From Candidatus Bathyarchaeota archaeon (GTDB taxonomy: Archaea; Thermoproteota; Bathyarchaeia; Bathyarchaeales; Bathycorpusculaceae): DNA of 64,000 bases. This document shows, one piece after another, positions 1 to 52,907 of the stretch (positions are counted from its first letter, which is position 1; every line of letters begins with the position of its first letter). The position numbers were made by a program, and so were the translations under genes. The stretch covers positions 320,001-384,000 of the forward strand of contig CAWABA010000006.1 in the NCBI GenBank assembly GCA_963780185.1, given 5' to 3'. The notes beneath the pieces are model-generated. The model was not told where the DNA came from and made no database searches. It saw only the letters and a program-made list of their open reading frames with translations.

Positions 1-15
1 CTTGCTGAAGACATT

Positions 16-618
16 TTGCGGGGCGTCGACGAAATCGAGTCCCTAAGCAGCAGCGAAAAAGAAAACCGTTGCCAAATTACTCTAAAGACGACCGTGGATT
101 TAGATGAGCGCATGAAGCATTCGCGCCGCAGCACCCGCATTATCCCGCTGATTAAAGCCAGCACATCGCCCTACCAGCATGACGAACGAATTCCCGTCGT
201 GAAGTCGCCGCTGAAAGTGAAGGCACAGGTCATCCTTGACTGCATAGCCCAAATGAACCTCAAAGCCAAGGGCTTCAAAGAAACCGGCGGGCTCCATGAC
301 TCGGGCATTTTCAAGACAGACGGCACAATGGTGGCTTTCTCCGAGGATGTCGGCAGGCACAACACGGTTGACAAAGTCATCGGCGAAGCGTCCCTGAAAA
401 AAGAGGATTTCAGTCAGTGCTTCATGATTATTACGGGGCGGGTTCCTGGCGACATGATTTACAAGGCGGCGAAAGTCGGCTTGCCCATCGTGGCGTCGGT
501 TGCGGCTGTTCTTAACTCGGGAATTTCCTCAGCTGAGAAAGCCAACATCGCGCTGGTGGGCTTTGTTCGCGGAACACGCATGAACGTTTACACGGGTGCA
601 GAAAGGATAGTTCTGTAG
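16..618 (+). CDS. fdhD: Formate dehydrogenase accessory sulfurtransferase FdhD (probably 5'-truncated by the window edge)
   Basis: ETGGLH and EDVGRHNTVDKVIG motifs plus the TGRV...MIYKAA...PIVAS...LVGFVRG C-terminus typical of FdhD/NarQ. Confidence 0.92.
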   Translation: MRGVDEIESLSSSEKENRCQITLKTTVDLDERMKHSRRSTRIIPLIKASTSPYQHDERIPVVKSPLKVKAQVILDCIAQMNLKAKGFKETGGLHDSGIFKTDGTMVAFSEDVGRHNTVDKVIGEASLKKEDFSQCFMIITGRVPGDMIYKAAKVGLPIVASVAAVLNSGISSAEKANIALVGFVRGTRMNVYTGAERIVL

Positions 619-626
619 GTGCCCAA

Positions 627-1898
627 ATGATTAGACCCGACATTAAGAGACTGCCTAAACGCGGAGACCCGCTGGACGCGCAAAAACAGCTCCTAAAAGC
701 CGCCTGCAAAGCCAAACTGCATACGGAAGCTGTCCCACTGATGGAAGCCTTAGGCAGAGTCTTGTCGAAAGACGCATTCTCAGACATTAACATTCCAGCT
801 TACGACAAAACCTTCATAGACGGCTACGCAATCAACCCGCAAAAAACCACAGAAGCCTCCGTTGGCGCACCGGCGGCTTTCAAAGTTGTCGGTAAACTGT
901 TCCCAGCTGACTACCCGACCGCCGTGAAGGTGGGGCGTGGAGAAGCCGTTTACGTTGCCTGTGGAGCCCCAATCCCAAAAGGTGCGGCTGCAACGGTCAA
1001 AGTGGAGGAAACAAGGCTAAACGGCGACCAAATCCAAGTTCTTCGCCCAATCAAGTCTGGCGAAGGCATCATACCTCTAGGCGACGACCTCAAGAAAGGC
1101 ACTTTAATTCTGCGAAAAGGGCAGGTTCTGAGACCGCAAGACATAGGCTTGCTTGCCTCGGTCGGCATGGCTAAGGTTGAAGTTTTCAAGAAGCCAACAG
1201 TAGCCATTCTCTCTGGAGGAGACGAATTAATCAGGCAAACCCAGAAAAACCCCGAAAAAATCGCCAACAACTACGCGCTCGTAGTCTCGGGTTTGGCTTC
1301 TGAACTTGGCGCGTCAGCTTCCATGCTGGGAATTATGCCTGACTCCATGGATAAGGTGCAAGCCAAAATCGGTGAAGCCTTGACGCAGGCGGACATCGTC
1401 GTCACCATCGGCGGCTCTTCGGTCGGGGTGAAGGATTTTGTTCCAGACGCGGTAAATGCGCTTGGAAAACCCGGCGTTGTTGTGCAGGGCGTCTTGCTGC
1501 GTCCTGGCGCGGTTTCAGGCTTCGGCATCGTAGACGGCAAACCCGTCGTCATGTTGCCTGGGCACATCGGCTCATGCATCGCAGGCTTCTACCTCTTCGC
1601 AGCACCCCTAATCAGCATGTACGCGGGCGCAGAGTCAGCTGGGATGCAGCCGCACGTAACTGCCGAGTTAACTGAAGCGTTGGATTCGGGTCCGCAGTTC
1701 AGGTTCCTGCTTCTTCATCTGACACGCGGCGAAGGCAAGTTCTTGGCGGCGCCAGTTGAAGGCGGTTCAAGCGCGCTGTCAACCATCGTAAAATCAAACG
1801 GCTACACAATCGTTCCGCCGCACACGACGTTGCCGAAAGGCAGCAAAGTTGAAGTGCACTTGTTTGGGAAGCTGGAGTTTTCTGCGCTCGGCTTTTAG
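627..1898 (+). CDS. moeA: Molybdopterin molybdenumtransferase MoeA
   Basis: ALGRVL..D, DGYA, GAPIPKGA, SGGDEL, TIGGSSVGVKDFV and VVMLPG motifs; 423 aa. Confidence 0.93.
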   Translation: MIRPDIKRLPKRGDPLDAQKQLLKAACKAKLHTEAVPLMEALGRVLSKDAFSDINIPAYDKTFIDGYAINPQKTTEASVGAPAAFKVVGKLFPADYPTAVKVGRGEAVYVACGAPIPKGAAATVKVEETRLNGDQIQVLRPIKSGEGIIPLGDDLKKGTLILRKGQVLRPQDIGLLASVGMAKVEVFKKPTVAILSGGDELIRQTQKNPEKIANNYALVVSGLASELGASASMLGIMPDSMDKVQAKIGEALTQADIVVTIGGSSVGVKDFVPDAVNALGKPGVVVQGVLLRPGAVSGFGIVDGKPVVMLPGHIGSCIAGFYLFAAPLISMYAGAESAGMQPHVTAELTEALDSGPQFRFLLLHLTRGEGKFLAAPVEGGSSALSTIVKSNGYTIVPPHTTLPKGSKVEVHLFGKLEFSALGF

Positions 1899-2982
1899 GC
1901 TACTTTTGACGGGTAACGGTGGACATGGCTGTGCTTTCCCATAGCCCACGACTCGCACCACGCCTTGTCAGCTAACGCACGCTGAGCCAGCAGCATGCAA
2001 CGGTTCTCCTCAAACAATTCAGCCTCTAACCGATAATCGTCTGCAGCTTTGACAAAAGCGTCTTTGCCGTCAAAATCCACCTCAGCAGCCGCTTGGGGTC
2101 AGATTTTTGTTTGGAAAGTTTCAGCAAAGCTTCTCCTTGGCTTTCCCAACTCACAGCCGCCCAAAAACATGAGCGCGAGGCTTCAAAACTGCTGGCGCAC
2201 GAGGCAAAGGTGCCTGCTGCTTGGGAAAGTTTGTCTTCCTGAGCCATTCTGGCGCCGTCTCGCAAATGCTGCAAATCAGACATTGGAAAACTGCCTAGGT
2301 TCAGTTGCACGTTTTCTTTGACTGGGCCGTGGGCGCGGCGGGTTTGTAGTTGTTTGAGGTCTTCTTTGGAGTTGATGTTGATGAAGCTTCTGAGTTCGGG
2401 GTCAAGCGCCTTGATTTCGTTCACGGTGGAGACGAGCAGGGTTTTGCTGGCGCCTCTTTGGATGTCGTCTGAGCGTGGACGCTTAAGCATGCACAGCGTC
2501 TCGGTGATTTCTAACCCGGCTTTGCGCTCCAGCACTGTGAGCAGGGTTTCAAGGCGTCCGTTGGGCCACATTGGAGTAGCCACCTCAAAACCCTCGGCTT
2601 GCCTAAACAGGTAATCTGCGACTTTAGGCTGCAGAAAAGGCATGTCACAGGGCAAAGTGAGACAATAATCTGCCCCAACCTGCTTGAGCCCCGACATAAT
2701 TGCCACAGTGGGACCGCTGATATCGGCTTTTTCGTCAACCACAACCCGCACGGCTTCAAACCCATGCGCCTTGAGGACTCCAACGTAATTTGCCCCGCGT
2801 TGCCCATCACAAACACTTACCGCAACCTCGTCAACAACCCCCTGCACGTTTTCAACAGCATGAACCAGCAGAGGCTTACCAGAAAGGTTAGCGAGCGCCT
2901 TGTCTTCCCACACGTCTCCGCCTTTAACTTGGAAACGCCGGGCTTTTCCACCCGCCAATATGAGCGCAGCCCGTTTAGTCAA
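1895..2982 (-). CDS. mobA: Mo cofactor guanylyltransferase MobA with a helical C-terminal extension (frameshift near 2090 joins ORFs 2026..2982 and 1895..2080)
   Basis: LILAGGKARRF, DKAL, GKPLL, PCDMPFL and SFININSKEDL motifs; the downstream ORF continues the helical tail. Confidence 0.85.
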
Positions 2983-2994
2983 GCAGTTTTCTCC

Positions 2995-3578
2995 TTAGTC
3001 CGCGGCTTTTGCGGTGGGTTTTGTTTTGGCGAGGTGGTTTTTGATTAGGTCAACGAGTTTTTGTCCGTCTTCCGGAATTTTGATTATGGGTATGCTGCGG
3101 AACGTTGTGCTGGTTGAGTTTTTGGCTGCGACGCCTGCAATCGCGATGATTGGCTCCACGGTGCCTTCTAGCGTCTGCATGAGTCCTTCTTCGTCTTTGG
3201 CAGTGACGATTTTGGGGACGTCTGCTCTTTTGGCGATTAAGCTGTGGAAGCCTTCGATGAAAACCACATCCAGCTTCTCATGTTCAAGCAACGCGATTAT
3301 TTTGTCGAGGTCGTTGAGCGCCATCTGGGTTTTTTTTATGATGTCTATTTCTTCAGGCGAAATGGCGACGATGACTTTGGCTCCTGCCTTGGCGTAGCGC
3401 CACGTGTTCGTGCCCTCCTTATCCATAGTGAAGCCCATGTGATGAACATGCTTAATCGACCCAACCTGATAGCCCTCCGCTGACAGACGAGAAATCAGGT
3501 ACTCTAACGTAACTGTCTTTCCTGAACCGCTTACCCCAACCGCGGCAACAACTAAAACCGTACAACATCACGCTCCAT
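2995..3578 (-). CDS. mobB: Molybdopterin-guanine dinucleotide biosynthesis protein MobB (copy 1; start region frameshifted)
   Basis: Reading upstream of ORF 2995..3438 in frame gives VLVVAAVGVSGSGKTVT...GSIKHVHH (P-loop), then DKEGTNTWR..AGA and IEGF; the ATG at 3578 is one base out of frame. Confidence 0.85.
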
Positions 3579-3662
3579 TTGAAAAAGCTGCCTGCTTGGT
3601 TTTATAAATTGTGCTTGACTTCGCAGTTTTAGGCGCAAACGAAAAAGTACTTCCTCTGAAGT

Positions 3663-4606
3663 TTAGCATACGTATATCTCTGCTACAAACTTAACCCAGT
3701 ATTGCCCCCACTTGTATTCAGGTGTCGGCGCAAAGATTCTGAAAGGTCCGCCTTGACTTGTCGGTAGGTGTTGTCCGTTTTCTTGGTAGCCAAGTAGCAT
3801 TGCTCCGTCTCTAACTTGGGCTAACGTGAAGTTTTGTTCGTAGCCGTCGATGCCGATGAAGCAGACTTTGCTGGCTTGGCTGGAAGCTTTTGCTGCTTGA
3901 AGAATATTTAAGATCGGTATACCCGTCCAGTCTGCGGTCACGTTGGGTGCATCTCCAGGTCTGAATTCTCCGTTCAGCGTTTGTGATTGAAAAGCAGTGA
4001 TGTTTTTCCCAGTAATTACAAGCGGATTCGCTACGTCGCCCGTGACTCGAGACAGTCCACTGGTTACTTTGGATTTTTGCGACTTGCTCAACTTGGAAAT
4101 TGCCTGCAAAGTGTGGCGCGATAAGTTTTACTGGGCCCCCATTTTGACTGGTTATCCATTGACCGTTTTTTATGAATGCAAGCACAATCACATTATAACT
4201 GTAGCTGTAAGGGAAGTAGGTGCTGTTCCATGCTTGAAAAGTGCTTAGGGTTGCCGATTGCCCTTTTGCGCCGATTATGTTTAAGGGTCCAGCATCCCAC
4301 GAAATTCCTGTCTGGTTACAGAACTCGGAGAGCGAAACTCCGCAGTAAGTGGCGTTTTCGCTTTTCACGATTACGTCTGTTAGCGGCATTTTTGATATTT
4401 GGTTTAGCGTCAAAGTTTTTTCTTGGCTGACGTCGCCTGTGACTTCAATTTGCCATTGGGGAATGGCACCCACTGGCAGCGTCAACTCGTTTTTGTTTGA
4501 CTGCGAATTGTTTCCTATTATTTTGCCGTAGTAGAGTGAGGTGAAGGCTGCCTAGGACAATTATTGTGGCTATGGTTATGGTGAGAATTTTTGTTGTTTT
4601 CTTCAT
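3663..4606 (-). CDS. Membrane-anchored protein with two sulfite-oxidase/MsrP-fold (Oxidored_molyb-like) domains lacking the catalytic Cys (frameshifted, 3 ORF pieces)
   Basis: N-terminal MKKTTKILTITIATIIVLGSL anchor; WQIEVTGDV, GGPVKLIAP, WTGIPI..IL, GIDGY, GGPFRIFAP and WVKFVAEI motifs. Confidence 0.75.
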
Positions 4607-4650
4607 TTTTTCGCTTCTTGTTTGTTGCTTAGTTCTTTTTTCTTGGCTAA

Positions 4651-4674
4651 CGATATGATTTAATAGTAACATCG
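4651..4674. promoter_or_regulatory. ModE-like operator palindrome 1 (CGATATGA-TTTAATAG-TAACATCG)
   Basis: 24-bp imperfect palindrome between the divergent starts at 4606(-) and 4732(+); matches three other copies. Confidence 0.8.
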
Positions 4675-4731
4675 GATTGTTAGTTAATTTCAAACTAAAA
4701 AGCCTACCGCTCCAGCTTGGAAGAAGACAAT

Positions 4732-5777
4732 ATGAAAAATCATGCATTAACCTGTATTTCAGTCTTAGTATTAACCACTTTTTTAGCCGCTTCATTCGCC
4801 GCACCATCAGCCCAACCTGCTTTGCCAACGCAGACGCAAATTCAAGTTTTTCAATAGTCTGGATAACCGACACCCAGTACCTTTCAGAAAGCTACCCCGC
4901 ATACTTTGACAATTTATGCCAATGGATCGTTAACAACAAAGAAACCTACAACGTGCAAATGGTGATTCACACAGGCGACATCGTCAACGACGAAGCAAAC
5001 CAAACAGAATGGGCAAACGCGAACGAGTCAATGAGCATACTCCTAAACAACAATGTTCCCTACTGCTGGGACGCTGGAAACCACGATTACGACGTAACAT
5101 GCTGGATAGGCAACCAGTTTACAGCTTTTAACCCACAAGTAATGCAGTCGAAAACGTACTGGGTCGGCGACGACTTCGACGGCATGAACACAGCAGTTCA
5201 CTTTAACGTTAACGGTTGGGATTGCTTAGTAGTAAACATCGCATACCACGCTAACGATTCAGTGCTGGCTTGGGCGAACAACCTCTTGGACGCCTACCCG
5301 CAATCTCATGTCATCGTGGCAACTCATGCATTCATTAATCAACAGTGCAGTTACGATTCTTGGGCGCTAAACTTCAAAAAAACGGTTCTCGATACCCACC
5401 CCAACGTCTTCTTGACCCTAAACGGCCATTATCATCCTGCCGCGGGAAACCGGACAGAAGTCAACGGTCGCTACGAGTTGCTTTTTAACCAGCAGGATGC
5501 CGACGTCGAAAGGGGTGCTGACACCGCGAGAATTCTAACTTTTAACATCGGAACAGGCACAATAAATGTACAAACTTACAACCAACTCACAAACCAGTTT
5601 CTACAAGACCCAACCAACAACTTCACGTTAACGACCAGCTTTCGCGGCAACTCTGAAGGCGGAGGTGTCCCAGAATTTCCAGCTAATACTTTTCTGGTAA
5701 TTCTTTTGTCAGCTTCTGCCCTTTGCCTGGTTGCTGTAGGTGGGAAGCCGAAATTGAAAATCTTGTCAGAGTCATAG
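4732..5777 (+). CDS. Secreted calcineurin-like metallophosphoesterase with a C-terminal PEF-CTERM-type sorting signal (signal peptide frameshifted)
   Basis: DTQ, HTGDIV, AGNHD, ATH and LNGHYH metallophosphoesterase motifs; VPEFP + TM + basic tail; ATG 4732 gives signal peptide MKNHALTCISVLVLTTFLAASFA in another frame. Confidence 0.85.
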
Positions 5778-5860
5778 GCTAGACACCGTTAAAGTTTTTG
5801 GCGATTTGTTTGGCTTTCTTGTTTTTTGGTTTTTGAAATGGATGACTGTCAAACTAACCC

Positions 5861-5884
5861 CGATATGATTATATAGTCATATCG
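5861..5884. promoter_or_regulatory. ModE-like operator palindrome 2 (CGATATGA-TTATATAG-TCATATCG)
   Basis: Perfect 8-bp inverted arms with an 8-bp spacer, 28 bp upstream of ATG 5913. Confidence 0.85.
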
Positions 5885-5912
5885 ATAAAATTCGTGCCTG
5901 AAGGAAAATTAA

Positions 5913-7487
5913 ATGACATCTCAACTCAAAAATAGCAAATTTAACAAAAATATCTTAGCAGCCATAATAATTATAATAATCGTCGTCGCATCGGCATCAG
6001 CAGCGGCAGTATACGTTATATCACAAAAGTCGCCAGCCTCTAAAATTACGCTTCCGTCTATGTCTCTTACAGTTAAAGGCGCTGACGATCAACAAAAAGT
6101 CTTAACCCAAACAGACATTGCAGCCATGCAGCCTTATACAGGTAAAGGCGGATTCGAAACCAGCGGCGGATTGATCTCCGAAACAGGCACCTACACTGGC
6201 GTGCAAATAACAGCCTTTTTGAACCTCGTCGGTGGAATGACAAGTTCTCAAACGTTGAACGTGACGGCTTCAGACGGCTACTCAATTCTTTTCACATACA
6301 ATCAAGTCAACGGACAAGACCTCACCACATTCAGCCCAGTAACAGGAAACGCAGCAAATCCAACGCAATCCTTGGCAATGGTCTTAGCCTATTCGGTAAA
6401 CGGAACACTATTCCCCTCGGATCAAGGGCCACTGCGACTTGTTGTCTTGGGTTCCGAAGGTCTTCTAATTCCAGGCCATTACTCAGTAAAAATGGTAACT
6501 GGATTGCAAGTCAAGGGAACCGCTTCACCGACACCCACCCCCACAAGTTCCCCAACAGCTTCTCCTACACCAACAGCATCGCCTACCCCAACAGCCACCC
6601 CCACAGCTACTCCAACCCCAGCTCCATGGAGCATCGTATTTAACGGCACGGCAGCAGTAGCAATGTCTGAAGCAACATTTGCAACTCAAGTTACCCAGAA
6701 CACCACAACTTACAATGACGGCGTAACCAACTGGAGTGGAACGCCTCTGCAGCAGCTTGTAGTGTGGGCTGAAAACAACGGAGTCATAAGCAGCAGCGCC
6801 TTGGCTCAAGGTTACGTTGTTGAAGTTATAGGTTCAGACGGATACACTAAAGCCTTCAATGAAAGCCGCATAGGCGCAAACAACCTCCTAATCGCAAACA
6901 CCGCCAATGGCTCAGCACTCACAGGCAGCAACGCTCCGTTGACGCTCGCAGGCGCAAGCTTAGCCAATAACGAGAAAGTCGGGAAAATTGCCCAAATCCT
7001 AATCCTGCCTATTCAAGATTGCAGTGTAACTGTTGTTGGCGCCAACGGCAATCAGGTGACGTTGTTCTCAAATGACATTGCGTTGATGCCTTCGGTTACT
7101 TACACGGGCGGCTCTTACAAGAGCAGCTCAGGAGTATTCAACAACGGCAGCTATACAGGCGTGACGCTTCAGTCACTTTGCAACTTGGTCGGCGGAGTCA
7201 CGAGCAGTAACAGCATTAAAATCACGGGTTCTGACGGCTACAATGTTACATACACTTATGCTGAAGTTGCAAGCGGAACTGGCTTCTCTACGTTTGATGG
7301 CTCAGGAAACTCGGCGACTCCAACACAGCCACTATACCTCATATTAGCTTACTGGCTCAACGGCGCAAACTTGCCCGATGGAGTAAACGGCAGCGGACCA
7401 TTGAAGACCATGGTAGTCGGCGCAAACGCATTAAACACACCAGGCAACATCGCAGCAAAATACGTTGTCCTACTAACCATAAGCTAA
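5913..7487 (+). CDS. Membrane-anchored extracellular protein with three Cys-less sulfite-oxidase-fold domains and a Pro/Thr linker
   Basis: N-terminal TM; three repeats of [YW][TS]G...(A/G)SDGY...G..L...(G/A)PL.L; PTPT linker. Confidence 0.78.
   Translation: MTSQLKNSKFNKNILAAIIIIIIVVASASAAAVYVISQKSPASKITLPSMSLTVKGADDQQKVLTQTDIAAMQPYTGKGGFETSGGLISETGTYTGVQITAFLNLVGGMTSSQTLNVTASDGYSILFTYNQVNGQDLTTFSPVTGNAANPTQSLAMVLAYSVNGTLFPSDQGPLRLVVLGSEGLLIPGHYSVKMVTGLQVKGTASPTPTPTSSPTASPTPTASPTPTATPTATPTPAPWSIVFNGTAAVAMSEATFATQVTQNTTTYNDGVTNWSGTPLQQLVVWAENNGVISSSALAQGYVVEVIGSDGYTKAFNESRIGANNLLIANTANGSALTGSNAPLTLAGASLANNEKVGKIAQILILPIQDCSVTVVGANGNQVTLFSNDIALMPSVTYTGGSYKSSSGVFNNGSYTGVTLQSLCNLVGGVTSSNSIKITGSDGYNVTYTYAEVASGTGFSTFDGSGNSATPTQPLYLILAYWLNGANLPDGVNGSGPLKTMVVGANALNTPGNIAAKYVVLLTIS
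6520..6625 (+). repeat. Pro/Thr-rich linker coding repeat (TASPTPTPTSSPTASPTPT...)
   Basis: Degenerate tandem codons encoding PT repeats between domains 1 and 2. Confidence 0.8.
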
Positions 7488-7626
7488 GACAAAACCGTTA
7501 ATTCAGCTTTTAATCGCTGAAACCACCTTTTTTCTTTATTAAAAAACGACTTAAGCAATTCTACAATTGAGTTTGGCAGAAATCGGGTTCAATGGGTTAA
7601 GTTAAGAAAACGGGGATTAACACTTT

Positions 7627-8130
7627 CTAGCTGACTTTTATTACGGCGACGCCTTTGACCCATCTCTGCGCGTACTGGTCGGTGCCTAAGATGAGTCTGA
7701 GTGGTCCTTCTCCGCCGTTTTTGAGCGGCGTCAAAGGTGAGCCGTTTCTGGCGTAGGCGATAAGGGTGGTTTGGTTCATTGCGTCCTGCATTGAGAGGGT
7801 TTCTCCGTAGCCATCTGACGCTTGAATGAAGACTGAAGTGGCGTTAGACGATGCTTTGGCTTGTTTTAGTAGCGTTGAAAGCAGGACTCCTGTGTAGTTG
7901 TAGGCGCCGTTTTGCGAGGGGTCGCCGCTTGAGATGAGCGTGGCTCGAATAGTTAGTGCCGTTTCTGATTTTATTTGGCTCAGGGTAACGTTCATGGGTT
8001 TTTTTACGTTTCCCGTGATTTCTATCGTTCCGAACTGGGTCGCAGGCGGACGCGTGTAGTAGTACAGCGGTATGGATGCGGCGACTAAGATAATCATGGC
8101 TGCAATGGCAATTTTCGTTGCTTTTTTCAT
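7627..8130 (-). CDS. Membrane-anchored single sulfite-oxidase-fold domain protein lacking the catalytic Cys
   Basis: MKKATKIAIAAMIILVAA anchor; IEITGNV, YTGVLLSTLL, QASDGY, GEGPLRLIL and RWVKGV motifs; no Cys in the protein. Confidence 0.8.
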   Translation of the reverse strand: MKKATKIAIAAMIILVAASIPLYYYTRPPATQFGTIEITGNVKKPMNVTLSQIKSETALTIRATLISSGDPSQNGAYNYTGVLLSTLLKQAKASSNATSVFIQASDGYGETLSMQDAMNQTTLIAYARNGSPLTPLKNGGEGPLRLILGTDQYAQRWVKGVAVIKVS

Positions 8131-8738
8131 GTTTTCACCCTGTTAAGATGGTTGTTGCTTTGGTTCAAAGTTGAATTTCCTCCAAAACCGATTTTTCTGA
8201 CTCTGACAAGAAGCATGTTTGCGATGAACCCGCCTACTCCGCCGCTTATCCCTGCAACCACTGCTAAAAACGAAAGTAAAATTAACGGTGAGACAAGGAT
8301 CAACGAGGCAACTAAGACGGTTCCAACGGCGTTGGCAATTGCTGAGGCGCCGATGCAGCAACCCGCGCAGCATGCTTTGTGTCTTGAGAGCAGAAAAAAC
8401 GCGTCTATGGCTAAGCCTGGTCCAAGGTAAATGACGAAAGACAGAAGCCCGAAGTTGCCGAAAGGCATCACTAAACTGATGAAGGCCTGTATAAGCGAAG
8501 TCATCGTTGCAGCCCCAGGTTTGCGCACCAAACCAAACGCCATCACTGGCCACATCATATAGAGTCCGCCTGCAACTGCGCCTGCTGGAATGAAGAATGG
8601 CTCGGTTATGGTGGCGGCGAGGGGGTGAATGATGTTTTTTGTTGCGATTCCTAAGCTTGCAAAAAGCGACATTAGAACAAGGTCAACGGTGGCGATTTTT
8701 AGGTTGGCTCCGTACATGGTTTGGTTTGTTCGTTTCAT
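8127..8738 (-). CDS. ECF transporter S component (YkoE/ABC_cobalt-like)
   Basis: About six TM helices; DLVLMSLFASLG, GLVRKPGAATMTSLIQA and GISGGVGG patterns; overlaps the next gene by 4 bp. Confidence 0.8.
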   Translation of the reverse strand: MKRTNQTMYGANLKIATVDLVLMSLFASLGIATKNIIHPLAATITEPFFIPAGAVAGGLYMMWPVMAFGLVRKPGAATMTSLIQAFISLVMPFGNFGLLSFVIYLGPGLAIDAFFLLSRHKACCAGCCIGASAIANAVGTVLVASLILVSPLILLSFLAVVAGISGGVGGFIANMLLVRVRKIGFGGNSTLNQSNNHLNRVKT

Positions 8739-8748
8739 TCCCTCGCCC

Positions 8749-8772
8749 CGATGTTACCGTATTGTAACATCG
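8749..8772. promoter_or_regulatory. ModE-like operator palindrome 3 (CGATGTTA-CCGTATTG-TAACATCG)
   Basis: Perfect 9-bp inverted arms, about 10 bp upstream of the ECF S-component start. Confidence 0.85.
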
Positions 8773-8935
8773 ACTGAATTAACGCCTTTCCCTAAAAAAC
8801 TTAGCCGCCGAAACTCCTCAAAATACTTGACGAACCATGAAAAGCCGAGCACAGCTTAAACTTTTATCCCTTAACTCAAATTCGCCTGAAGAACTATGAT
8901 TTTGCCATAGTTTTAAATTAAACCCCACCTTAACC

Positions 8936-10354
8936 ATGTTCCAACCCAAACAAACCCAGCTGAATTTAATGACCCACAACCTGCTCAACAAAAGAATTGC
9001 TGCGCCCAAACGTGTCAAGATTGCTAGTCTGAGCGCTATCCCTGAGGTTAATGGGAAAAGTGATTCTTCAAAGCAGAGTCATCTGCATTTTGGCAGAAAA
9101 GCCAAGTTTGCGGTGGCAATCGCTATCGCAGCTATCCTGCTTGTTTCATTTTTTGTTGGGATTTCCAGTTCAAACTCTCAGCTAGGGCGGTGGATGGGAA
9201 TTGACTATGTTCCCGCAGGCTTTCACGAGGGCAATTTAGGTTTCGTTGTTTCGGGTCAACCCGTCAATGAATCCGTTTGGCTCGGGGTAGCGGCAAACGC
9301 GTGGGCGTATTTTCAACCCGGCGTAGGCGTTGACGCAAACACTGGGCTTCCGTATGCTTCAGGCACAAATTTTAAGCCTTTTACCTCTTGGGATTTAGGG
9401 GTTTACATCCAGGCGGTGCTTGACGCTCAGAAACTTGGGCTTATAAAAGCGGGCGGCGCGTGGGGTTCAACTGCGCGGATTGCGAAGGTCATGAGTTTTC
9501 TTGAGAATCGACCCTTGAACCCGAAAACGGGTTACCCCTACTGGTATTACGATGCGACAAACGGGCAAGATTACCCTGCGATGTCGGATAAGGCAACAGG
9601 CATCGTTGACGGGGCTGACACGGGGAGGCTGTTTTTGGCTCTTAGCCATCTCAGAGACTACGACAGCAGTTTAGCGCCAAGGATAGACTACATTGTTTAT
9701 AACCAGAGTGACTACGCGGCGTTGCTGCCAAGCGTCGAGAGAGACACCGCATCAAACAACGTCTACTCCTACTACATAGACAGCGGCTACGCATGCTTTT
9801 GGCCCCAAGTCAGCTACGTTCCAGACCAAACCATGGAAAACCTTGCCCAAATGAACAAAGTCACCACATGCGGCGTCTTATTGCCAAACGCCACAATAAC
9901 CACCGAGCCATTGCTGTGCGCAATCTTCGAAATCAACAACACCAACACCGAACTAAACGCCCTGACGAAGCAAGTTTACCTTGCCCACCAAGCCTACTAC
10001 AACTCAACAGGCAAGTACGTTGCCTTCAGCGAAGGAAACTCCTTTACAAGCCAATACCTCTACGAATGGGTAGTCGCCCCCAACGGCCAGACATGGAAAA
10101 TAACCAGCACCACCCCCAACATATACCTAAACATAAACCCCATAATCTACACCAAAGTAGCCTTCAGCTTCCTCGCACTCTACAACACCACCTTCGCCCA
10201 AAACATAGTTGTCTACCTCCAAAACATGATTCCTAACCCCTCCTCAAACGGGTACAGCGACGGCGCAAACAGCAGCGGACAGTGCATTCCAGGCACAGGC
10301 TGCAACACCAACGGCTTAATTTTAGACGCCGCCCTCTACGCCATTCAGAACTAA
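8936..10354 (+). CDS. DUF3131-domain membrane-anchored protein (putative (alpha/alpha)6 glycoside hydrolase-like)
   Basis: AWAYF...TGLP...TSWDLGVYIQAVLDAQKLGLI and ADTGRLFLAL motifs, NTNGLILDAALY end; N-terminal TM. Confidence 0.7.
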   Translation: MFQPKQTQLNLMTHNLLNKRIAAPKRVKIASLSAIPEVNGKSDSSKQSHLHFGRKAKFAVAIAIAAILLVSFFVGISSSNSQLGRWMGIDYVPAGFHEGNLGFVVSGQPVNESVWLGVAANAWAYFQPGVGVDANTGLPYASGTNFKPFTSWDLGVYIQAVLDAQKLGLIKAGGAWGSTARIAKVMSFLENRPLNPKTGYPYWYYDATNGQDYPAMSDKATGIVDGADTGRLFLALSHLRDYDSSLAPRIDYIVYNQSDYAALLPSVERDTASNNVYSYYIDSGYACFWPQVSYVPDQTMENLAQMNKVTTCGVLLPNATITTEPLLCAIFEINNTNTELNALTKQVYLAHQAYYNSTGKYVAFSEGNSFTSQYLYEWVVAPNGQTWKITSTTPNIYLNINPIIYTKVAFSFLALYNTTFAQNIVVYLQNMIPNPSSNGYSDGANSSGQCIPGTGCNTNGLILDAALYAIQN

Positions 10355-10382
10355 TATATGGCTCGTCCCTGTATGAGGCAGG

Positions 10383-10916
10383 ATGGTGCAGGTTTTGCCA
10401 AAAATGGTTGCGGTCGTCGGCGGGAAACACTCGGGGAAAACCACCGTTATCGAACACTTAATTGCAGAACTGAAAAGCCGTGGATACCGTGTTGGTGCCG
10501 TTAAGGAGATGGTTCGCATCCCAACGTTGGATACGCCTGCCACTGAAACTGACAGGTACACCACTGCGGGGGCAGAAGTCATAGTTGCTGTTCCCAGAGA
10601 CGAAACCGTCGTATTCATCAAAAAACGGCTCAGCATAAAAGAGATTTTGCCCTACCTCAATGGGCTCGACTATGCTCTTTTAGAAGGCTTCGAGCGTGAA
10701 CAAACGCTTCCCAAGATTATTGCTGCAAAAACCGCTGACGAAGTAAAAAGCTACTTGGGCGGGTTGGTCATTGCCGTTTCAGGTCTGATAATGGAGTCCG
10801 CGCCAGAAACAAAGAAAGCCGCCATGTTCAATATTCCAATGTTCAAGATTTCGATGCAGACTGGAGAACTTGCCGATTTAGTCGCCGAAAAAGCGGTAAC
10901 CTGCAGCGGCATCTGA
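10383..10916 (+). CDS. mobB: MobB paralog (copy 2)
   Basis: GGKHSGKTT P-loop, GYRVGAVK, ETDRYTTAGA and LLEGF motifs. Confidence 0.82.
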   Translation: MVQVLPKMVAVVGGKHSGKTTVIEHLIAELKSRGYRVGAVKEMVRIPTLDTPATETDRYTTAGAEVIVAVPRDETVVFIKKRLSIKEILPYLNGLDYALLEGFEREQTLPKIIAAKTADEVKSYLGGLVIAVSGLIMESAPETKKAAMFNIPMFKISMQTGELADLVAEKAVTCSGI

Positions 10917-11168
10917 AGTCTCGTTTACGTAGAAATTAAAACTATGTTTATATCGTTAGTTGCGCTAGGGTTTATCAGGGATTAGCAATTGCCTCGAAAG
11001 AAAAATAAGTTTAAGCTTTTCAGTCTATTCGGTTTACTTGCTGAATTTGAAGATCCAGAAGAGCACAACCATTGCCACTGCGAAGGCAACATTTGAGTGC
11101 CGCTCTTCCCTTTTTGTAAGTGTGAAAAAATGCTATGAACTGCCGGGGATTTCTGCTTCTTGAAATTG

Positions 11169-12290
11169 TTATTCGATGTTGTTGTCTTCAAAGATGTTTA
11201 ATGCGTCAGTGCTGAAACACACGTATACTTTGTCTCCTATGCTGACCCCCAAACTCTTGATTGTGCTTAAAGAAACTCTTGTTTTTACCAAGAAGCCTGC
11301 GTCTATCGTGACTTGGGCGTTTGATCTCATTTGAACCATCTCAGTTATGACTCCTTGAACAGAGTTGCTTGGAGCCCCACCGAAATTGGATTCGGCTGAT
11401 TTGGAAAGTACGATGTCTTCAGGTTTAATTGTGGCGATAACGCTTTTTCCGACGATGTTAGGAGTTTTTGGCGCCAAAATTATCTCGCCATTCACATCGA
11501 TTTCTAAGAGCCCCTCACGGGTTCCCACAGCGCTGCCTTTGAACGTGTTAATTCCCAGAAACTTTGCAACGTACGATGAACTGGGCTTATCAAAAATCTC
11601 GGTTCTGCCGCCGATTTGCTCGATGCGTCCATTGCCCATCACAGCTATCCTGTCTGACATCACAAAAGCTTCAGACAAGTTATGAGTAACATAAACCACA
11701 TCGATTTTTAGTGCCTGAAGGTAGTTTTTGAGTTCCAACCTGAAAGATTCTCTTAGTTGAGGATCAACTGCGGAGACAGGTTCATCTAAAAGCAGCACTT
11801 GCGGTTCAGTTGCCAGAGATCTTGCCAACGCAATCCTTTGTTTCTGCCCGCCGCTAAGTTGACTCGGATAAAACTTTGCATATTCGTGGAGCCCAACGAA
11901 ATCAAGTAGGCTTTCCGTTCTTTTTTTCACTTCCTGTCTGGGTAAGTGCATCGCCTTTAACCCGTATGCTACATTGTCTTGAACGCGCATATGAGGAAAA
12001 AGAGATACCGTTTGGAAGACATAGCCAACTTTACGCTCTGACGGCTTAAGCTGAACCTTTTTTGTGCCCTCTTTTCCGCTCACTAACACATCGTCAATGT
12101 AAATATTGCCTTCATCTTGCCTGGTTAAGCCTGAAAGTATGTTTAACAGCGTTGTTTTTCCACAGCCGTTCGGCCCAAGAAGTGACAAGATTTCCTCGTC
12201 TCTAACTTCGAGACTGAGGTTTTCCAAAACCTTCTTTTCTTTAAAAGATTTTGAAATTGAAGTAATCTTTATCATTTTTTGGCGCCCCAC
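11169..12290 (-). CDS. modC: Molybdate/tungstate ABC transporter ATPase with C-terminal TOBE domain
   Basis: [23 protein letters not shown] and VTH motifs; TOBE-like C-terminus; in operon with modAB. Confidence 0.85.
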
Positions 12291-12308
12291 CTTTTTTGCT
12301 CAAGAAGC

Positions 12309-13094
12309 TTAACGGCTATAAGAATTGAGAATGAAATGATGATTAAAATAATGGATAACATGATTCCTGCTAAGGGCTCGTAATACAGAAACATGTAGAT
12401 TGCCAGAGGCATCGTCTGCGTTATACCTGCAATGTTTCCCGCGAACATGAGGGTTGCGCCAAACTCGCCCATGGCTCTTGCCCACGTCATCATGGTTCCT
12501 GAAATTATAGCCCGTATTGAAAGCGGGAAAGTGATGGTGAAAAATACCCTGAAGGCGAGAACCCGATAACATCTTGGCACTGTTAATTATGTCTTTATCC
12601 ATGTTTTCAAACCCAACTTTGGCAGATCTAAAAAGAAATGGAGATGCTACAAAAGTTTCTGCAATAACGACGGCTATTGTGCTTCCAGGTATAATGAATC
12701 CCGGTTTGTTGAATAGGGGACCCAGTAGTCCTTTCGGCGCGAAAGTGTATAGCAACGCCACACCCGCTACAGCAGGCGGCAAAACTATAGGTAAATCCAT
12801 TATAGTGTCAAGGAATGTTTTTCCAGGAAAATTTCTCGTTACCATGAAATAAGCTGATGGTACCGCTAAAATAAAGGCAATTACAGTCGCTGCGGCTGAT
12901 GTCATTAAGCTGAGTTTAATGGCTTCTATGATTCCAGCGTTACGTATCTGCGCGCTGACTTGGCTAGGCTCGATTTTTAAAAAAACTGCTAAAATTGGTA
13001 TGGTTATGAAAAGAAAGTATGTTACTACGATTAGGGCAACGATTAAAATGATAATTTTGTCTGGATATCGGAGTTGAGCGAACCTATGCTTCAA
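12309..13094 (-). CDS. modB: Molybdate ABC transporter permease (frameshift near 12555)
   Basis: [16 protein letters not shown] motif, and [18 protein letters not shown] in the second frame. Confidence 0.88.
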
Positions 13095-13151
13095 TATGTT
13101 GCACCGTTCGATAACTTAAAAAAAAGATGTGGAAGTGCTTAATATGCACTT

Positions 13152-14178
13152 TTATGACCCGAACCCGAATTCTGTCAGCAGCGCTTGTCCTTGTGCTTGA
13201 AAGCCAGTAATTGTAGAAGTCTTGTGCTACAGCTGATTGAGTTGTTTCGCTAGGTATGCAAATGCCGTAGGTGCCAACAGTGTTTACTGCGGTTAGGTAT
13301 TGGAAGGAATTGTACTGTTTCTCCTATCAGGTTGGCGTAAGCTTCGTCAGAGTAGTACACGATGCCAGCGTCAGCGACTCCTACGTTGAGGTTAACGGCG
13401 CCAACGACTTGTTCATCAGTTGATAACGTGTTAATGACGTTGTTTTGGAAATTCGTGTAGTAGTTAGCGTAAGCTGGGTTGTAGCTTGGAGAGCTTGGGT
13501 TGCCCCATGTGTTAGTTAATTTTTGTCAGGGTTTGGTTTGTGTATGAGCCTACAGGCACTGATGTCTGCGCTATTACGATATGTATCTTGTTAGCGCCTG
13601 TAGCGGTAGAAGCTAAGTCTGCCAGTGATGTAATGTTTTTCGGGTTGCCTTGCGCTATAATGACGCAGAGACTGTTTGTTGTGAAATTGGTGTTGAAGTT
13701 GCTGTATGACGAGGTTTGAGCTGTTTAACGCGTTGGTCCATTTGGTGTCGGCGGACATGAAGACGTCGCATGGTGAGCCTGCAGCGATTTGCGCTTCAAG
13801 TGTACTTGATGAGCCAGAGTTGACTACTATGTTGCAGTTATATTGCTTGTCGAATGCTGCGGTCATGTTTGCGACGACGTTGACTAAGCTTGAAGCAACG
13901 AACACTGTTAGAGTTACAGGTGTTGGGGTTGCTGTCGGAGCAGGTGTTGGAGATCGGTTGAAGGTGATGCTGTTGGGGTAGCGGTGGGTTTTGCGGTGTG
14001 GGTGAGGGCGTTGCGCGTTGCTGTTGGGGTGAGCGTGGGTGATGCGGTCGGTGCGGGTGACGGTGTGGGGGAAATTTTGGAGTTGGGTGAGAGTGTTCCG
14101 TTGTAGGCTAAATAGCCCAGTGCGGAAGCAACTATTATTATGACGTACCATTATTATTGCAAGGTATTTTGTGTTCAT
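13152..14178 (-). CDS. modA: Molybdate-binding protein ModA with N-terminal anchor and Pro/Thr linker (multiple frameshifts)
   Basis: LTVFVASSL...SGSSSTLEAQIAAGSPCDVFMSAD motif; VPVGSY and ADAGIVYYSD pieces in other frames; ends at TAA 13152. Confidence 0.82.
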
Positions 14179-14189
14179 GGAGATTATCT

Positions 14190-14213
14190 CGATGTTATCA
14201 TTTAGTCATATCG
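14190..14213. promoter_or_regulatory. ModE-like operator palindrome 4 (CGATGTTA-TCATTTAG-TCATATCG)
   Basis: About 11 bp upstream of the modA start; same consensus as the other three sites. Confidence 0.85.
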
Positions 14214-14449
14214 AACAATTGTCAAAATATAAACCTTTCCAGACAAAACTTCGCGTTAAGCCGCTTATCATAGACTTGTAGATATCAAAACCCGTAAACT
14301 TTGACGCAAATTGAAAGGACCCAAAACTTTAGTCAGAAACTACCTTCCCTGTACCGTCAAAGCGTATCGTCTTTTCGTAGATACTTTACCCTCCTACCGG
14401 GCACCCTTGCACAAAACCGAAACATCTACCCAAACAAACCGCTCAATCA

Positions 14450-14779
14450 TTACGGCATCTTTTCTAAAAGATTGTTGAGCTCAGCCTGGGTATAACGGTA
14501 CCGCTTAACTAAATCTCTGCCAAAATCCGTAACTTCCGATGAGCCGCCGCCTTTCGATCCGCCACGCACACGTTTCACAAGTGACTGCCCAAGCCGCTCC
14601 TCTGCCAAAGTGATGCGGTGCAGGGCATAGCGGTAGGACATGCCTAGGTTTTTGGTGGTTTCAAGCATCGAGTGGCATTTGTCGATTTCTTCCAAGAGTT
14701 CCGCTAAGCCGTCGCCGAAAACCGCTTCGTCATTCTCGTTAACCATCCAAAGCTTAACTGCGTATTTGAGGGCGCACAT
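14450..14779 (-). CDS. modE: ModE-family winged-HTH regulator (DNA-binding domain only)
   Basis: VFGDGLAELLEEI...LGMSYRYA...LVKRVRGGSKGGGSSEVTDFG motif; 109 aa with no TOBE/mop domain; adjacent to modABC. Confidence 0.85.
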   Translation of the reverse strand: MCALKYAVKLWMVNENDEAVFGDGLAELLEEIDKCHSMLETTKNLGMSYRYALHRITLAEERLGQSLVKRVRGGSKGGGSSEVTDFGRDLVKRYRYTQAELNNLLEKMP

Positions 14780-14954: not shown

Positions 14955-15818
14955 ATGCAAAAAACCACAACAACCAGCAATACAAAATAACCCAAAAACA
15001 ACAATTAAACCCACAAGTAAAACTACTCAAAATACATGCACCCGACATCGCCCAAAAAGCCAAAGCAGGGCAATTCGTAATATCTCAAAACACATGTGAA
15101 CAGCGAAAGAATACCCCTAACCATAGCTACTTGGGACAAAACGCGTGGCACAATCACCCTCATATTCCAAGAAGTAGGGTTCTCAACAATCGAGCTCGGC
15201 AAGCTCCAAGCAGGCGACAGAAATAGAGAATTTGGCAGGGCCCTTGGGGAACCCAAGTGACATAAAAAACTATGGTAAAGTGGCTGTTGTATGCGGCGGG
15301 GTTGGAACAGCAGCTGCTTACCCGATCGCCCAGGCGTTGAAGGAAGCAGGAAACAACGTAACAACCATCATGGGCGCAAGAAACAAAGACCTGCTAATCT
15401 TGGAAGACGAAATGAAGGAAGTTTCTGACGAGTTTTACGTAGCAACTGACGACGGTTCAAAAGGGCAGAAAGGCTTCGTCACAGACGTACTCAAGATGCA
15501 GATGGCGCAAGGTGCATCAAGTTTCAACGTTGTTTATGCCGTAGGACCTCCCATGATGATGAATGCGGTATCCGAAGCCACACGACCTCACAAAATAAAA
15601 ACGATCGTCAGCCTGAACCCGATCATGGTCGATGGCATGGGTATGTGCGGTGCCTGCCGAGTTTCAGTCGCCGACAAAGTTCGGTTTGCATGCGTTGAAG
15701 GACCCGAATTTGACGCTCACCAAGTCAACTTCAAAGAATTAATGATGCGGCTTAGAAGCTACTCAAACGAGGAAAAACTGAACACGCAAGTCAGCGAGAA
15801 TTTTGGGAGAGCATGCAC

Positions 15819-15834
<16 letters not shown>
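14955..15834 (+). CDS. nfnA: NADH-dependent reduced ferredoxin:NADP oxidoreductase small subunit NfnA/SudB (frameshifted 5' part)
   Basis: AKAGQF and ERIPLTI upstream; GGVGTA, TDDGSKG.KGFVTD and MVDGMGMCGACRV...CVEGPEFDAH motifs. Confidence 0.88.
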
Positions 15835-17288
<1,454 letters not shown>

Positions 17289-17340
17289 AGTCGTCGACTT
17301 AACCCGAGGCTTGCCTGAGCCGTTAGTTTCTGCGCTGTTC

Positions 17341-18380
17341 CTAAGGTTCAGGATTAACCATTTTGAAGGCGCGGTTCACTGCTATCTCGGCGATGCTAAA
17401 GGCGCAGTGCGAGATTCTTTTTATGTTGTCGCGTATGGAGCATATGGCGCAAACTAACTCGGCGCTTTTTGGTGGACCCGGTAAATGATTTGGATGCTAT
17501 TTCCACTTCGAGTTTATCCATTCTCTGCTCTATGCTTCATTATTTCAACTGCGGCAGACACATCTTTCGCGAAGAACGCTGTCAACTGCCTTCACATAAA
17601 GGTCTAGCTGCTTCTGTTCCGCCGTTTATCATAAGCGCCAAGACTTCTTCCGGGATCTTTTGTTCGTGTGCCACTGAGCATTACGATGTGCCTTGCGATG
17701 TCGGCTGCGTAATCTGAGGCGTATTCCATTCGGTAAACAAGCGTTTCGTGATCCATGCAGTCGATGGGTCAACATGTATTTCCTTTGCCAAAATGTGGGT
17801 CTTGTGCGGCGTTGCGTAGGATTCTGAGTATGAAGAAAGCGAAGTGGTCAACATCGTCGTCAAGCGAAAAAATCGATTTCGCCAATGCCACGTCATCATT
17901 TTTTAACGCATTCATAGCTCCTTCGCACATTGAACGTGAAATCATGTGCATTCGTTGTATCGCCTGCTCCAAGCGATGCTATCGATTCATCCATTAAGTT
18001 TTGAATGTACACGCATTTTGAATCTGCTTCCATAACTCTCATGTAGAGCTTTCCAGCCATGTTACGGATAGCTTTGGTTTGAGGTACAGTGAAGATGTTT
18101 CCTGAGGTCAGCATAATTCCAGTGTACCCGTTTAAGAAGGCGCCTAAGGATTTTTTGAGTATATCAAGATTTCTTCGTCGTTTTGGTTTATGCTTAGAGT
18201 TATTTCTTTGGGCGTGGCTTTTTTGATGTTGCTTGGATAAATAACTAAGGCGCGGTCTCGTTGAACGCTGAAGGAAACGGTGTCGCCTTTTTTCAGTTCG
18301 TTTAGCTGCAGCCATTCTTTTGGAAGAGAGACTACGAGTGATGATTTGCCTGCAGACATGATTTTTCTTTCCGATTCCAA
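17341..18380 (-). CDS. phoU: AbrB-domain PhoU-family regulator (multiple frameshifts)
   Basis: ERKIMSAGKSSLVVSLPKEWL AbrB N-terminus; SLDDDVDHFAFFILR and IAEIAVNRA PhoU pieces. Confidence 0.8.
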
Positions 18381-27772: not shown

Positions 27773-27776
27773 TAGG

Positions 27777-52893: not shown

Positions 52894-52907
52894 AAGGAGA
52901 ACTTAAC

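Follow-up and report, generated by a model that had tools for sequence, protein, structure and literature searches.

A candidate ECF-type importer of molybdopterin-type cofactors with cysteine-less sulfite-oxidase-fold surface proteins in Bathyarchaeia

The 64,000-nucleotide stretch analysed here (hereafter the window) comes from a Candidatus Bathyarchaeota genome (GCA_963780185.1, contig CAWABA010000006.1, positions 320,001 to 384,000) and carries a small regulon in which membrane-anchored proteins of the sulfite oxidase (SUOX) fold are encoded next to an S-component of the energy-coupling factor (ECF) type and among genes of molybdenum cofactor (Moco) metabolism. This system is probably an ECF-type importer of a molybdopterin-type cofactor, i.e. 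molybdenum (Mo)- or tungsten (W)-molybdopterin, or its pterin moiety. All the evidence for cofactor import is computational and consists of the fold of the surface domains, their missing cysteine, the linkage and fusion of the genes, their regulatory elements and the phyletic pattern of the cassette. Coordinates are those of the window unless another locus is named; the source genome, a member of the Bathyarchaeia, is an assembly of 13 contigs that total 2.75 Mb, with a completeness of 93%.

Surface proteins with a cysteine-less SUOX fold

Six SUOX-fold domains are distributed over three membrane-anchored proteins, as a first-pass annotation made from the sequence alone had proposed. These are a two-domain protein (3663..4606, minus strand), a three-domain protein with an N-terminal anchor and a Thr/Pro linker (5913..7487, plus strand) and SUOX1, a protein of 167 aa with an N-terminal anchor and a single domain (7627..8130, minus strand). 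PF00174 (Pfam, E 1e-12 to 6e-19) matched both halves of the first, the first domain of the second (1.6e-12) and SUOX1 (6e-19), in agreement with the profile of the 167-aa family (A1), which found three domains in the three-domain protein (i-E 6e-9, 5e-5 and 2e-7) and one in each half of the two-domain protein. The SUOX1 family comprises 153 proteins at E≤1e-3, nearly all of them 167 aa long.

The absence of a cysteine at the Mo-ligand position, also noted in the annotation, is a family trait. No cysteine occurs anywhere in an alignment of 29 SUOX1 members, and alignments to SorA, PruR and the canonical proteins of this genome put the Mo-ligating Cys in the region 66-72 (LISSGDPS) of SUOX1, with the cysteines of SorA and of the CVEGWS proteins at S67/I66. 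Residues invariant among the 29 members include S67, D106, Y108, G140-P143, R145, R156 and W157. A cysteine in the first half of the two-domain protein belongs to a Y-C-G motif and does not occupy the ligand position, and a D-G-Y motif is retained in five of the six domains, including all three of the three-domain protein. Since the canonical Cys is present, in a CVEGWS or CVAS motif, in the three remaining PF00174 genes of this genome, the loss of Cys is specific to the six regulon domains. None of the three N-termini carries a twin arginine either, which weighs little, given that the canonical Cys-bearing copies also lack one where their N-terminus is readable. The SUOX fold offers a natural pocket for nucleotide-free Moco, and export of the Sec type delivers proteins without cofactor; the anchored SUOX domains would reach the surface empty.

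An AF2 model of SUOX1 (pLDDT 85.5, pTM 0.76) retrieved SorA (1.4e-10, TM 0.69), YedY and PruR (2e-8) with Foldseek. Besides a single integrative model, the 46 matches at E≤1e-3 were the four PruR proteins and enzymes of the SUOX fold, namely SorA, YedY, sulfite oxidases and nitrate reductase. When the SUOX1-family profile was compared with the Protein Data Bank (PDB), Agrobacterium PruR (7kos) came first (8.9e-8) and SorA second (1.5e-6). A phmmer search for solved-structure relatives of the whole three-domain protein gave a low-complexity match only.

PruR, with structures from Agrobacterium and other Proteobacteria (PDB 7kos, 7kou, 7kom, 7kp2, 7rkb), is described in the consulted sections of PMC11194511 and PMC13259868 as a periplasmic protein of the SUOX fold, devoid of the Cys, in which reduced pterins are held between Y104 and W160 with N102 as a further contact. 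Like PruR, SUOX1 is a small secreted or anchored protein that is nearly all SUOX fold and lacks the Mo-ligating Cys, and the two have in common a short hairpin. The Asn and Tyr with which PruR contacts the pterin, N102 and Y104, align to the invariant D106 and Y108 of SUOX1, so that pterin-contact residues appear to be retained without the Cys, a pattern the annotation had suggested looking for. They differ at the Cys position, where PruR has a conserved P-W (with Trp in place of the Cys), which aligns to P71-S72 of SUOX1, variable in its family. The C-terminal half of SUOX1 aligns better to SorA and retains the enzyme-type PLRL...WVK motif, and the cassette, unlike PruR, includes multi-domain paralogues. 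The partners differ as well: PruR acts with a DcpA-type signalling protein in the control of cyclic di-GMP (c-di-GMP), whereas SUOX1 is paired with a PF09819 S-component (34/34 loci, see below) under Mo/W-cofactor regulation. With the enzymes MsrP/YedY and SorA the six domains share fold and Pfam family, and differ from them in lacking the Cys and a dimerisation or haem domain. As PruR has already been described and solved, a Cys-less pterin binder of SUOX fold is not in itself the new part of this system, a point of which the annotation took no account.

An ECF S-component linked and fused to SUOX domains

The S-component gene (8127..8738, minus strand) encodes a 203-aa membrane protein that matches PF09819, a YkoE-type family (1.6e-15), and no NCBIfam model; sources label it either as an ECF S-component or as a thiamin/hydroxymethylpyrimidine (HMP) permease. 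Its stop codon overlaps the ATG of SUOX1 by 4 nt, which bears out the translational coupling read in the first-pass annotation. The linkage extends well beyond this genome. In all of 34 related loci, which are one-genome-per-species contigs nearly all titled Bathyarchaeia or Bathyarchaeota, S-component and SUOX genes are adjacent; the S-component gene lies directly 5' of SUOX1 in 18 loci, and nothing but a two-domain SUOX gene intervenes in the other 16. A MobB gene adjoins the cassette in 29 of the 34. Across the S-component family, surveyed as 150 representatives at 50% identity, eight proteins fuse the S-component with a seventh helix and one or two SUOX-like domains, and three fuse it to a type I phosphodiesterase/nucleotide pyrophosphatase (NPP). 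The proposed association of this S-component with Cys-less PF00174 genes is thus seen both as adjacency and as gene fusion.

A predicted complex of S-component and SUOX1 scored 0.37, with 0.00 for the best of three controls, which is weak support: 58 of 80 solved complexes attain this mark, as do 2 of 110 mismatched pairs. With scores up to 0.60 it was attained by just 7 of the 80 solved complexes and by both mismatches, and a pass in that range is more often wrong than not unless the pairing was already likely. The prediction runs share at least 91% of contacts, with a partner pLDDT of at least 77. In locus L033, from one Bathyarchaeia lineage, a dedicated EcfA, EcfA' and EcfT come after the S-component-SUOX1 pair (1278-4860 of that locus); two EcfT genes are present elsewhere in the source genome. 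The S-component also has a motif, R-H-K-A-C-C-x-x-C-C (residues 119-128), in which H120, C123, C124, C127 and C128 are invariant in 30 family members; many bacterial homologues retain this motif, and some (P0269, P0313, P0259) have lost it. A topology read off the sequence would put it at the cytoplasmic end of TM4-TM5, where it might hold a thiophilic Mo/W centre at release.

A palindrome common to the cassette and modA

The same 24-bp palindrome (consensus CGATRTNAY-N6-RTNAYATCG) stands before the cassette units and before modABC, as the annotation had stated. It occurs, with no strand assigned, at 4651..4674, between the divergent genes for the two-domain SUOX protein and the phosphoesterase; at 5861..5884, 29 nt 5' of the three-domain SUOX gene; at 8749..8772, 11 nt 5' of the S-component start; and at 14190..14213, 12 nt 5' of modA. 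These four exact sites, 11 to 45 nt 5' of the SUOX-unit, S-component and modA starts, compare with 0.09 expected, and none of 100 shuffles reached four. No further exact site exists in the 2.75-Mb genome, where the next best have two or three mismatches and six sites are found at ≤2 mismatches; the best near-palindrome outside the window (G000:C6:721076-721099) has two mismatches and reads CGATACGAC...GTCATATTG.

A palindrome lies just 5' of the S-component gene in 33 of the 34 loci (25 perfect, six with one mismatch, two with two mismatches), and L001, L009, L018 and L020 have additional copies 5' of the three-domain gene, the esterase gene and modA. Locus L033 is the one without, and its lineage has neither the palindrome nor a ModE gene; MoaC and MoaE were both not found in its genome (G181). 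The presumed binder is a 109-aa protein with a ModE N-terminal DNA-binding domain and no Mop domain (14450..14779, minus strand; TIGR00637 3.1e-16), and 28 of the 34 loci have a ModE-like gene whose end lies ≤400 nt 5' of the S-component. ModE of Methanosarcina acetivorans is reported, in the part of PMC12327845 consulted, to bind another palindrome (RTTATGT-N8-RCATAAY) and to repress Mo-related genes. The cassette may be induced under Mo/W limitation.

Bacterial-type cassettes and their riboswitches

A scan of metagenome contigs with four of the fused proteins gave 80 loci with 69 distinct S-component genes and a GC content from 0.32 to 0.71. Within 6 kb of the S-component gene we found a SUOX-like gene or domain in at least 43 of the 69, a pyrophosphatase in at least 22, EcfA in at least 48, EcfT in at least 22 and MobB in at least nine, with a SUOX-like gene present in every MobB-bearing locus; these counts are lower bounds, because many of the contigs are short. 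An operon in locus L094 begins with a Moco riboswitch, an FMN-binding lipoprotein (7272-7925 of that locus), a two-domain SUOX lipoprotein, a DUF364/DUF4213 protein (8963-9787), the S-component and a pyrophosphatase, and continues with SUOX, EcfA, EcfA', a CbiQ-type EcfT, a MobB bearing an Fe-S motif and an APH-like kinase (15203-15934); a GntR-like gene (read by eye) and a MOT1-type molybdate transporter (16697-17845), the latter seen at this locus only, follow. The APH-like kinase recurs 3' of MobB in six loci, L071, L094, L096, L103 and L097 among them, and would fit the re-phosphorylation of an imported dephospho-pterin. DUF364/DUF4213, annotated for 'heavy-metal chelation', is present in seven bacterial-type loci.

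The FMN-binding lipoprotein, which comes right after the riboswitch in L094, recurs in five bacterial-type cassettes and could be taken as a sign of a sensor or redox device, either a PruR-like pterin sensor acting through a membrane partner or a surface electron-transfer module; PruR itself acts as a sensor in the periplasm and controls a membrane protein, according to the sections of PMC11194511 and PMC13259868 at hand. We hold this to be very improbable, as the partner here is an ECF S-component, with EcfA-EcfA'-EcfT in the same operon and without any signalling output domain, and no DcpA-type gene was seen in the mapped loci within a limited query set. The cassette resembles the ECF vitamin transporters (YkoE-type PF09819, group I with extra membrane subunits), with which it shares the PF09819 S-component, the EcfA-EcfA'-EcfT genes that follow in L033 and in most bacterial-type loci, and control by a cofactor riboswitch. 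It is set apart from them by the fusion or coupling of its S-component to an extracytoplasmic SUOX-fold domain, and by a surface phosphoesterase and a MobB-like NTPase in its operon.

Riboswitches were sought with Rfam models, at their gathering thresholds, in 39 of the 80 loci (570 kb). The Moco riboswitch (RF01055) was found upstream on the coding strand in eight of 28 SUOX/NPP-type loci (L103, L094, L110, L118, L068, L072, L071, L067), with 44-73 bits vs a gathering score of 36, and on the opposite strand in two of 11 loci without SUOX or pyrophosphatase genes (L077, L087). The aptamer in L103 ends 84 nt 5' of the fused gene and is without stem P3; eight of the ten matches are 119-128 nt long, the absence of P3 being read from the L103 alignment only. 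A P3-less variant of this riboswitch has been associated with tungsten-cofactor (Tuco) genes (Regulski et al., PMC2408646, in the portion consulted). The other riboswitches in the 39 loci, one for Mg and two for c-di-GMP, are all distant from the cassette, and no thiamine pyrophosphate (TPP, RF00059), cobalamin or other cofactor riboswitch was present. The S-component is connected with Mo regulation in two ways, by Moco riboswitches in bacterial homologues and by the palindrome in archaea, a linkage that the annotation had suggested looking for. A riboswitch in bacteria and a ModE-type operator in archaea would both connect expression to Mo/W-cofactor status.

These results also bear on the chance that the cassette imports some other small molecule, such as a PruR-type pterin other than Moco, cyclic pyranopterin monophosphate (cPMP) or thiamine/HMP, its link to Mo being mere neighbourhood. 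PF09819 does include thiamine-related S-components, the Joint Genome Institute (JGI) naming agrees with such a role, and PruR, whose short hairpin SUOX1 shares, is reported to bind monapterin and neopterin-type pterins in a cleft too short for Moco (PMC11194511, sections consulted). We nevertheless regard such a ligand as decidedly unlikely: the Moco/Tuco riboswitches and a ModE-type site common with modA point to a Mo/W cofactor, the TPP riboswitch is missing, and MobB is linked to the cassette in both domains of life. Moreover, cPMP would be of no use to carriers without MoaE, and the excess loss of MoaC and MoaE in carriers, described below, would be left unexplained. From the YkoE thiamine/HMP S-components the one described here differs in its Mo-related contexts and in the absence of any thiamine signal from the scanned loci.

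Loss of cofactor synthesis in carriers of the cassette

The first-pass annotation had suggested that moaA, moaC and moaE might be missing from the source genome. This is not so, as all three are encoded outside the window; the expected losses are instead seen in one third of the remaining species with the cassette. Among 32 such species (completeness not given), MoaC and MoaE were both found in 19, both unfound in 11, and MoaC alone was unfound in two. Loci L014 and L021 were excluded from this count, their contigs being probably mis-binned, as the records are titled Saccharibacteria and Methanocella. The near-perfect concordance of two unlinked genes, MoaC and MoaE, argues that the absences are real.

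We compared carriers with non-carriers in an evenly drawn sample of 151 Bathyarchaeia genomes of completeness ≥80%, in which MoaC was found in 124 and the tungsten-pterin aldehyde oxidoreductase (AOR) in 141. Six had a strong match to the S-component (G000, G135, G141, G081, G087, G007). A divergent PF09819 gene in G083 was rejected, since it sits beside genes for a peptidase and succinyl-CoA synthetase and represents a different S-component, and a match in G036 (30% identity) was dropped on the same grounds. MoaC and MoaE were both unfound in four of the five genomes with cassette and AOR, vs six of the 136 with AOR and no cassette, a proportion also well below the 11 of 32 given above; we give no p-value for this comparison because related genomes are not independent, and as the set of 32 species probably includes the five AOR-bearing carriers, the two sets of counts are not additive.

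The four carriers without MoaC, MoaE and the MoaA C-domain are of good quality (G135, 90% complete; G141, 99%; G081, 97% and in one contig; G087, 95%) and all keep a full-length AOR (229-245 bits). MoeA_N was not found in G135, G081 and G087 and exists in one copy in G141, and no PF13531 (ModA-type) binding protein was found in any of the four, in a survey that did not extend to TupA-type proteins. In contrast, their five cassette-free congeners (G038, G090, G111, G132, G144) all have MoaC and two to three MoeA, and PF13531 is present in the four of them tested (G038, G090, G132, G144). The contrast holds within genera: in g19 MoaC is absent from both carriers and present in both non-carriers, and in g1 it is absent from two of three carriers and present in all five non-carriers. 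The four carriers have neither molybdopterin synthesis nor ModA-type uptake, three of them also lack metal insertion, yet AOR is kept, and so they would need finished cofactor from outside. It is a serious possibility, though one we rate somewhat short of probable, that some anaerobic archaea and bacteria are true Mo/W-cofactor auxotrophs that import the finished metal-pterin cofactor by an ECF system, with dinucleotides trimmed by surface phosphoesterases and a MobB-like NTPase receiving the product inside.

An ECF system that imports molybdate or tungstate (or their thio-forms in sulfidic sediment), in which the Cys-less SUOX domain would bind the oxyanion and the CC-x2-CC of the S-component the metal, appears unlikely to us, although several observations would suit it. 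ECF systems for Ni and Co exist, the histidine and four cysteines of the S-component motif are invariant, the same palindrome regulates modABC and the cassette, and the four carriers are without a PF13531 protein, as expected had the cassette replaced ModABC. Moreover, Moco riboswitches and ModE control Mo/W transporters too, as indicated in the consulted parts of Regulski 2008 (PMC2408646) and PMC12327845. However, oxyanion import leaves unexplained how AOR is loaded in carriers that lack MoaA, MoaC and MoaE and, in three of the four cases, MoeA as well, why surface phosphoesterases of two unrelated families recur, including as S-component fusions, and why the pterin-contact residues D106 and Y108 are conserved; besides, the Cys motif probably faces the cytoplasm and would not be an outer binding site. 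ModABC/WtpABC under ModE, which in the window has the same operator and presumed repressor as the cassette, is a different class of transporter, with a periplasmic oxyanion-binding protein.

Proposed mechanism and points that weigh against it

The identity of the ligand, the direction of transport and the roles of phosphoesterase and MobB are inferred. In the cofactor importer that we favour, the surface-anchored Cys-less SUOX-fold domains would capture pterin cofactor released by other cells, and a co-regulated surface phosphoesterase, calcineurin-like in the source archaeon (4732..5777, plus strand; secreted, with a C-terminal anchor; PF00149 8.6e-9) and NPP in the bacterial versions, would trim nucleotide or phosphate groups. 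That two unrelated surface phosphoesterases recur beside the cassette or fused to it would fit a route in which dinucleotide or phosphorylated forms are trimmed ahead of uptake, as happens in the salvage of other vitamins. SUOX1 would then pass the ligand to the S-component, uptake would be powered by an EcfA-EcfA'-EcfT module, shared or dedicated, and the cassette-linked MobB-like NTPase, in some bacteria also an APH-type kinase, would act on the cytoplasmic side. In Bathyarchaeia a repressor of the ModE type would switch expression off, and in bacteria Moco/Tuco riboswitches would do so. In the source organism, where MoaA, MoaC and MoaE are retained, import would supplement synthesis.

Several observations weigh against this reading. 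Free Moco is labile. The Cys-hairpin of the enzymes has the same short length in SUOX1 as in PruR, and the PruR cleft accommodates small pterins and not Moco according to the sections of PMC11194511 consulted; PruR W160 falls outside every alignment, and the invariant W157 of SUOX1 aligns with the SorA tryptophan of WVK. Pfam and JGI both put the S-component in the thiamine/HMP (YkoE) family. As regards regulation, the ModE-like protein scores 59 bits with TIGR00637 vs a cut-off of 98.5 and has no Mop domain, ModE of M. acetivorans was unresponsive to molybdate in vitro (PMC12327845, in the part consulted), and a same-strand riboswitch was not found in 20 of the 28 SUOX/NPP-type loci. The cassette is not tied to auxotrophy, since MoaC and MoaE are present in the source genome and in 19 of the 32 carrier species, and the carriers without MoaA, MoaC and MoaE for which there are quality data belong to two genera only. 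Conversely, the six of 136 cassette-free AOR-bearing genomes without MoaC and MoaE imply another route or incomplete assemblies. They are part of 15 such genomes in which MoaC was unfound, and genus g41 illustrates the ambiguity: G083, G107 and G128 are cassette-free, have no match to MoaC or MoaE and show 7-14 AOR matches in 200-280 contigs each, which is either fragmentation or a second, unrelated route to the cofactor. Finally, the assembly has frame breaks in several genes of the regulon.

Even so, the rival explanations each cover part of the data and none accounts for gene loss, esterases and Ecf module together. A cofactor importer is the simplest account. The salvage interpretation of the first-pass annotation is in this sense supported, and the cross-genome comparisons it had proposed turned out in its favour in all cases but one.

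Frame breaks in the assembly

The two-domain SUOX gene is not the single open frame that had been annotated at 3663-4606. It lies in three frames, with breaks near 4039-4046 and at ~4540-4551: the intact orthologue from L001 maps in two frames that switch at 4039-4046, and the anchor, from the ATG at 4606, is in a third. In the phosphoesterase gene, the signal peptide (in the frame of the ATG at 4732) and the body (in the frame of 4677) are out of frame with each other, the L001 orthologue aligning at 81% identity over 4815-5762. In all there are at least nine frame breaks in ~11 kb: the esterase gene and modB have one each, the two-domain SUOX gene has two and modA at least four. A further one falls in the first mobB (2995-3570), whose open reading frame (ORF) lacks the N-terminal part and is therefore probably frame-broken. 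The S-component, SUOX1, three-domain SUOX, modC and modE genes are unbroken, and the L001 and L009 orthologues of the broken genes are intact. The breaks may be sequencing error or decay. A single DNA sequencing run sharing 8% of the window's words yielded short low-depth contigs of relatives, none of which bridges the breaks, and no RNA run was listed for the stretch. Overlapping same-strand ORF pairs elsewhere in the window (e.g. 25591-28736, 52108-53453, 55159-56438 and 60582-62118) suggest further breaks, fewer per kb, and related loci from long-read metagenome-assembled genomes (L012, L023, L024, L034) show breaks of the same kind.

Neighbouring genes

The neighbours named in the first-pass annotation, i.e. 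FdhD, MoeA, MobA, two MobB, ModC and the ModE N-domain protein, were all matched by profiles. On the plus strand, the FdhD sulfurtransferase gene (1..618; TIGR00129 7e-44, over its cut-off), with its 5' end beyond the window edge, is followed by that of the molybdopterin molybdo/tungsto-transferase MoeA (627..1898; NCBIfam MoeA-type models, best E 9.5e-93). On the minus strand lie a MobA-like guanylyltransferase (2026..2982; PF12804 4e-29, and MobA models at 5e-21, under their cut-offs) and MobB paralogue 1 (2995..3438; TIGR00176 8.5e-13, model positions 40-133 only). MobB paralogue 2 (10383..10916, plus strand; PF03205 5.9e-21) is the paralogue that accompanies the cassette, in archaea as well as in bacteria.

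The modABC genes are all on the minus strand and encode a ModC/WtpC-type ABC ATPase (11169..12290; WtpC model 5.6e-86, under its cut-off), the ModB permease (12272..13094), to which L009 ModB maps in two frames, and a ModA-type binding protein (13155..14178), to which L009 ModA maps as five pieces in three frames. A gene for a DUF3131 membrane protein (8936..10354, plus strand; PF11329 3.5e-31) is divergent from the S-component gene and shares its palindrome at 8749; as a tblastn counterpart was found in 0 of the 34 related loci, we rejected it as a member of the system and take it as probably a local insertion into the regulon. Just past the regulon, a gene that appears to be split between frames (14957-15834) encodes an FAD/NAD-binding Fe-S electron-transfer subunit, by eye of the dihydroorotate dehydrogenase B / sulfide dehydrogenase type.

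Novelty and implications

As far as our literature searches reach, the role in transport and salvage is new. We found no paper that joins Cys-less SUOX pterin binders with ECF transport or describes Moco uptake or auxotrophy in prokaryotes, the 2009 ECF census, the 2003 ModE-site paper, a SUOX-fold review and supplements being outside the scope of the searches. Neither was the ECF cassette found in the Moco-riboswitch literature, where the supplementary regulon tables of PMC3766115 and PMC2408646, likewise outside that scope, may list the genes. The papers retrieved on uptake, salvage or auxotrophy for Moco were nematode work, reviews and one speculative remark on a type 11 secretion system (T11SS). 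According to the consulted part of a 2021 review (PMC9026282), almost every organism makes Moco de novo, with Caenorhabditis elegans as the sole known exception and its uptake route unknown. As in the worm, finished Moco would here be acquired from other organisms in place of synthesis; the worm, however, is a eukaryote that draws on protein-bound Moco by an unknown transport mechanism, whereas the present system provides a candidate prokaryotic transporter.

A defined prokaryotic importer, if confirmed, would overturn for microbes the rule that Moco is made de novo, and would explain genomes that have working Mo/W enzymes without MoaA, MoaC and MoaE. Should the auxotrophs proposed above exist, theirs would be the first Moco transporter known in any organism, and the PruR class of proteins would extend from signalling to transport. 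The molybdenum and tungsten cofactors would join the cross-fed cofactors of sediments, digesters and guts, as a public good traded in anoxic communities. The system is small, consisting of an S-component, one ectodomain of 140 aa and EcfAA'T, and would offer a genetic handle for bringing a labile cofactor into cells.

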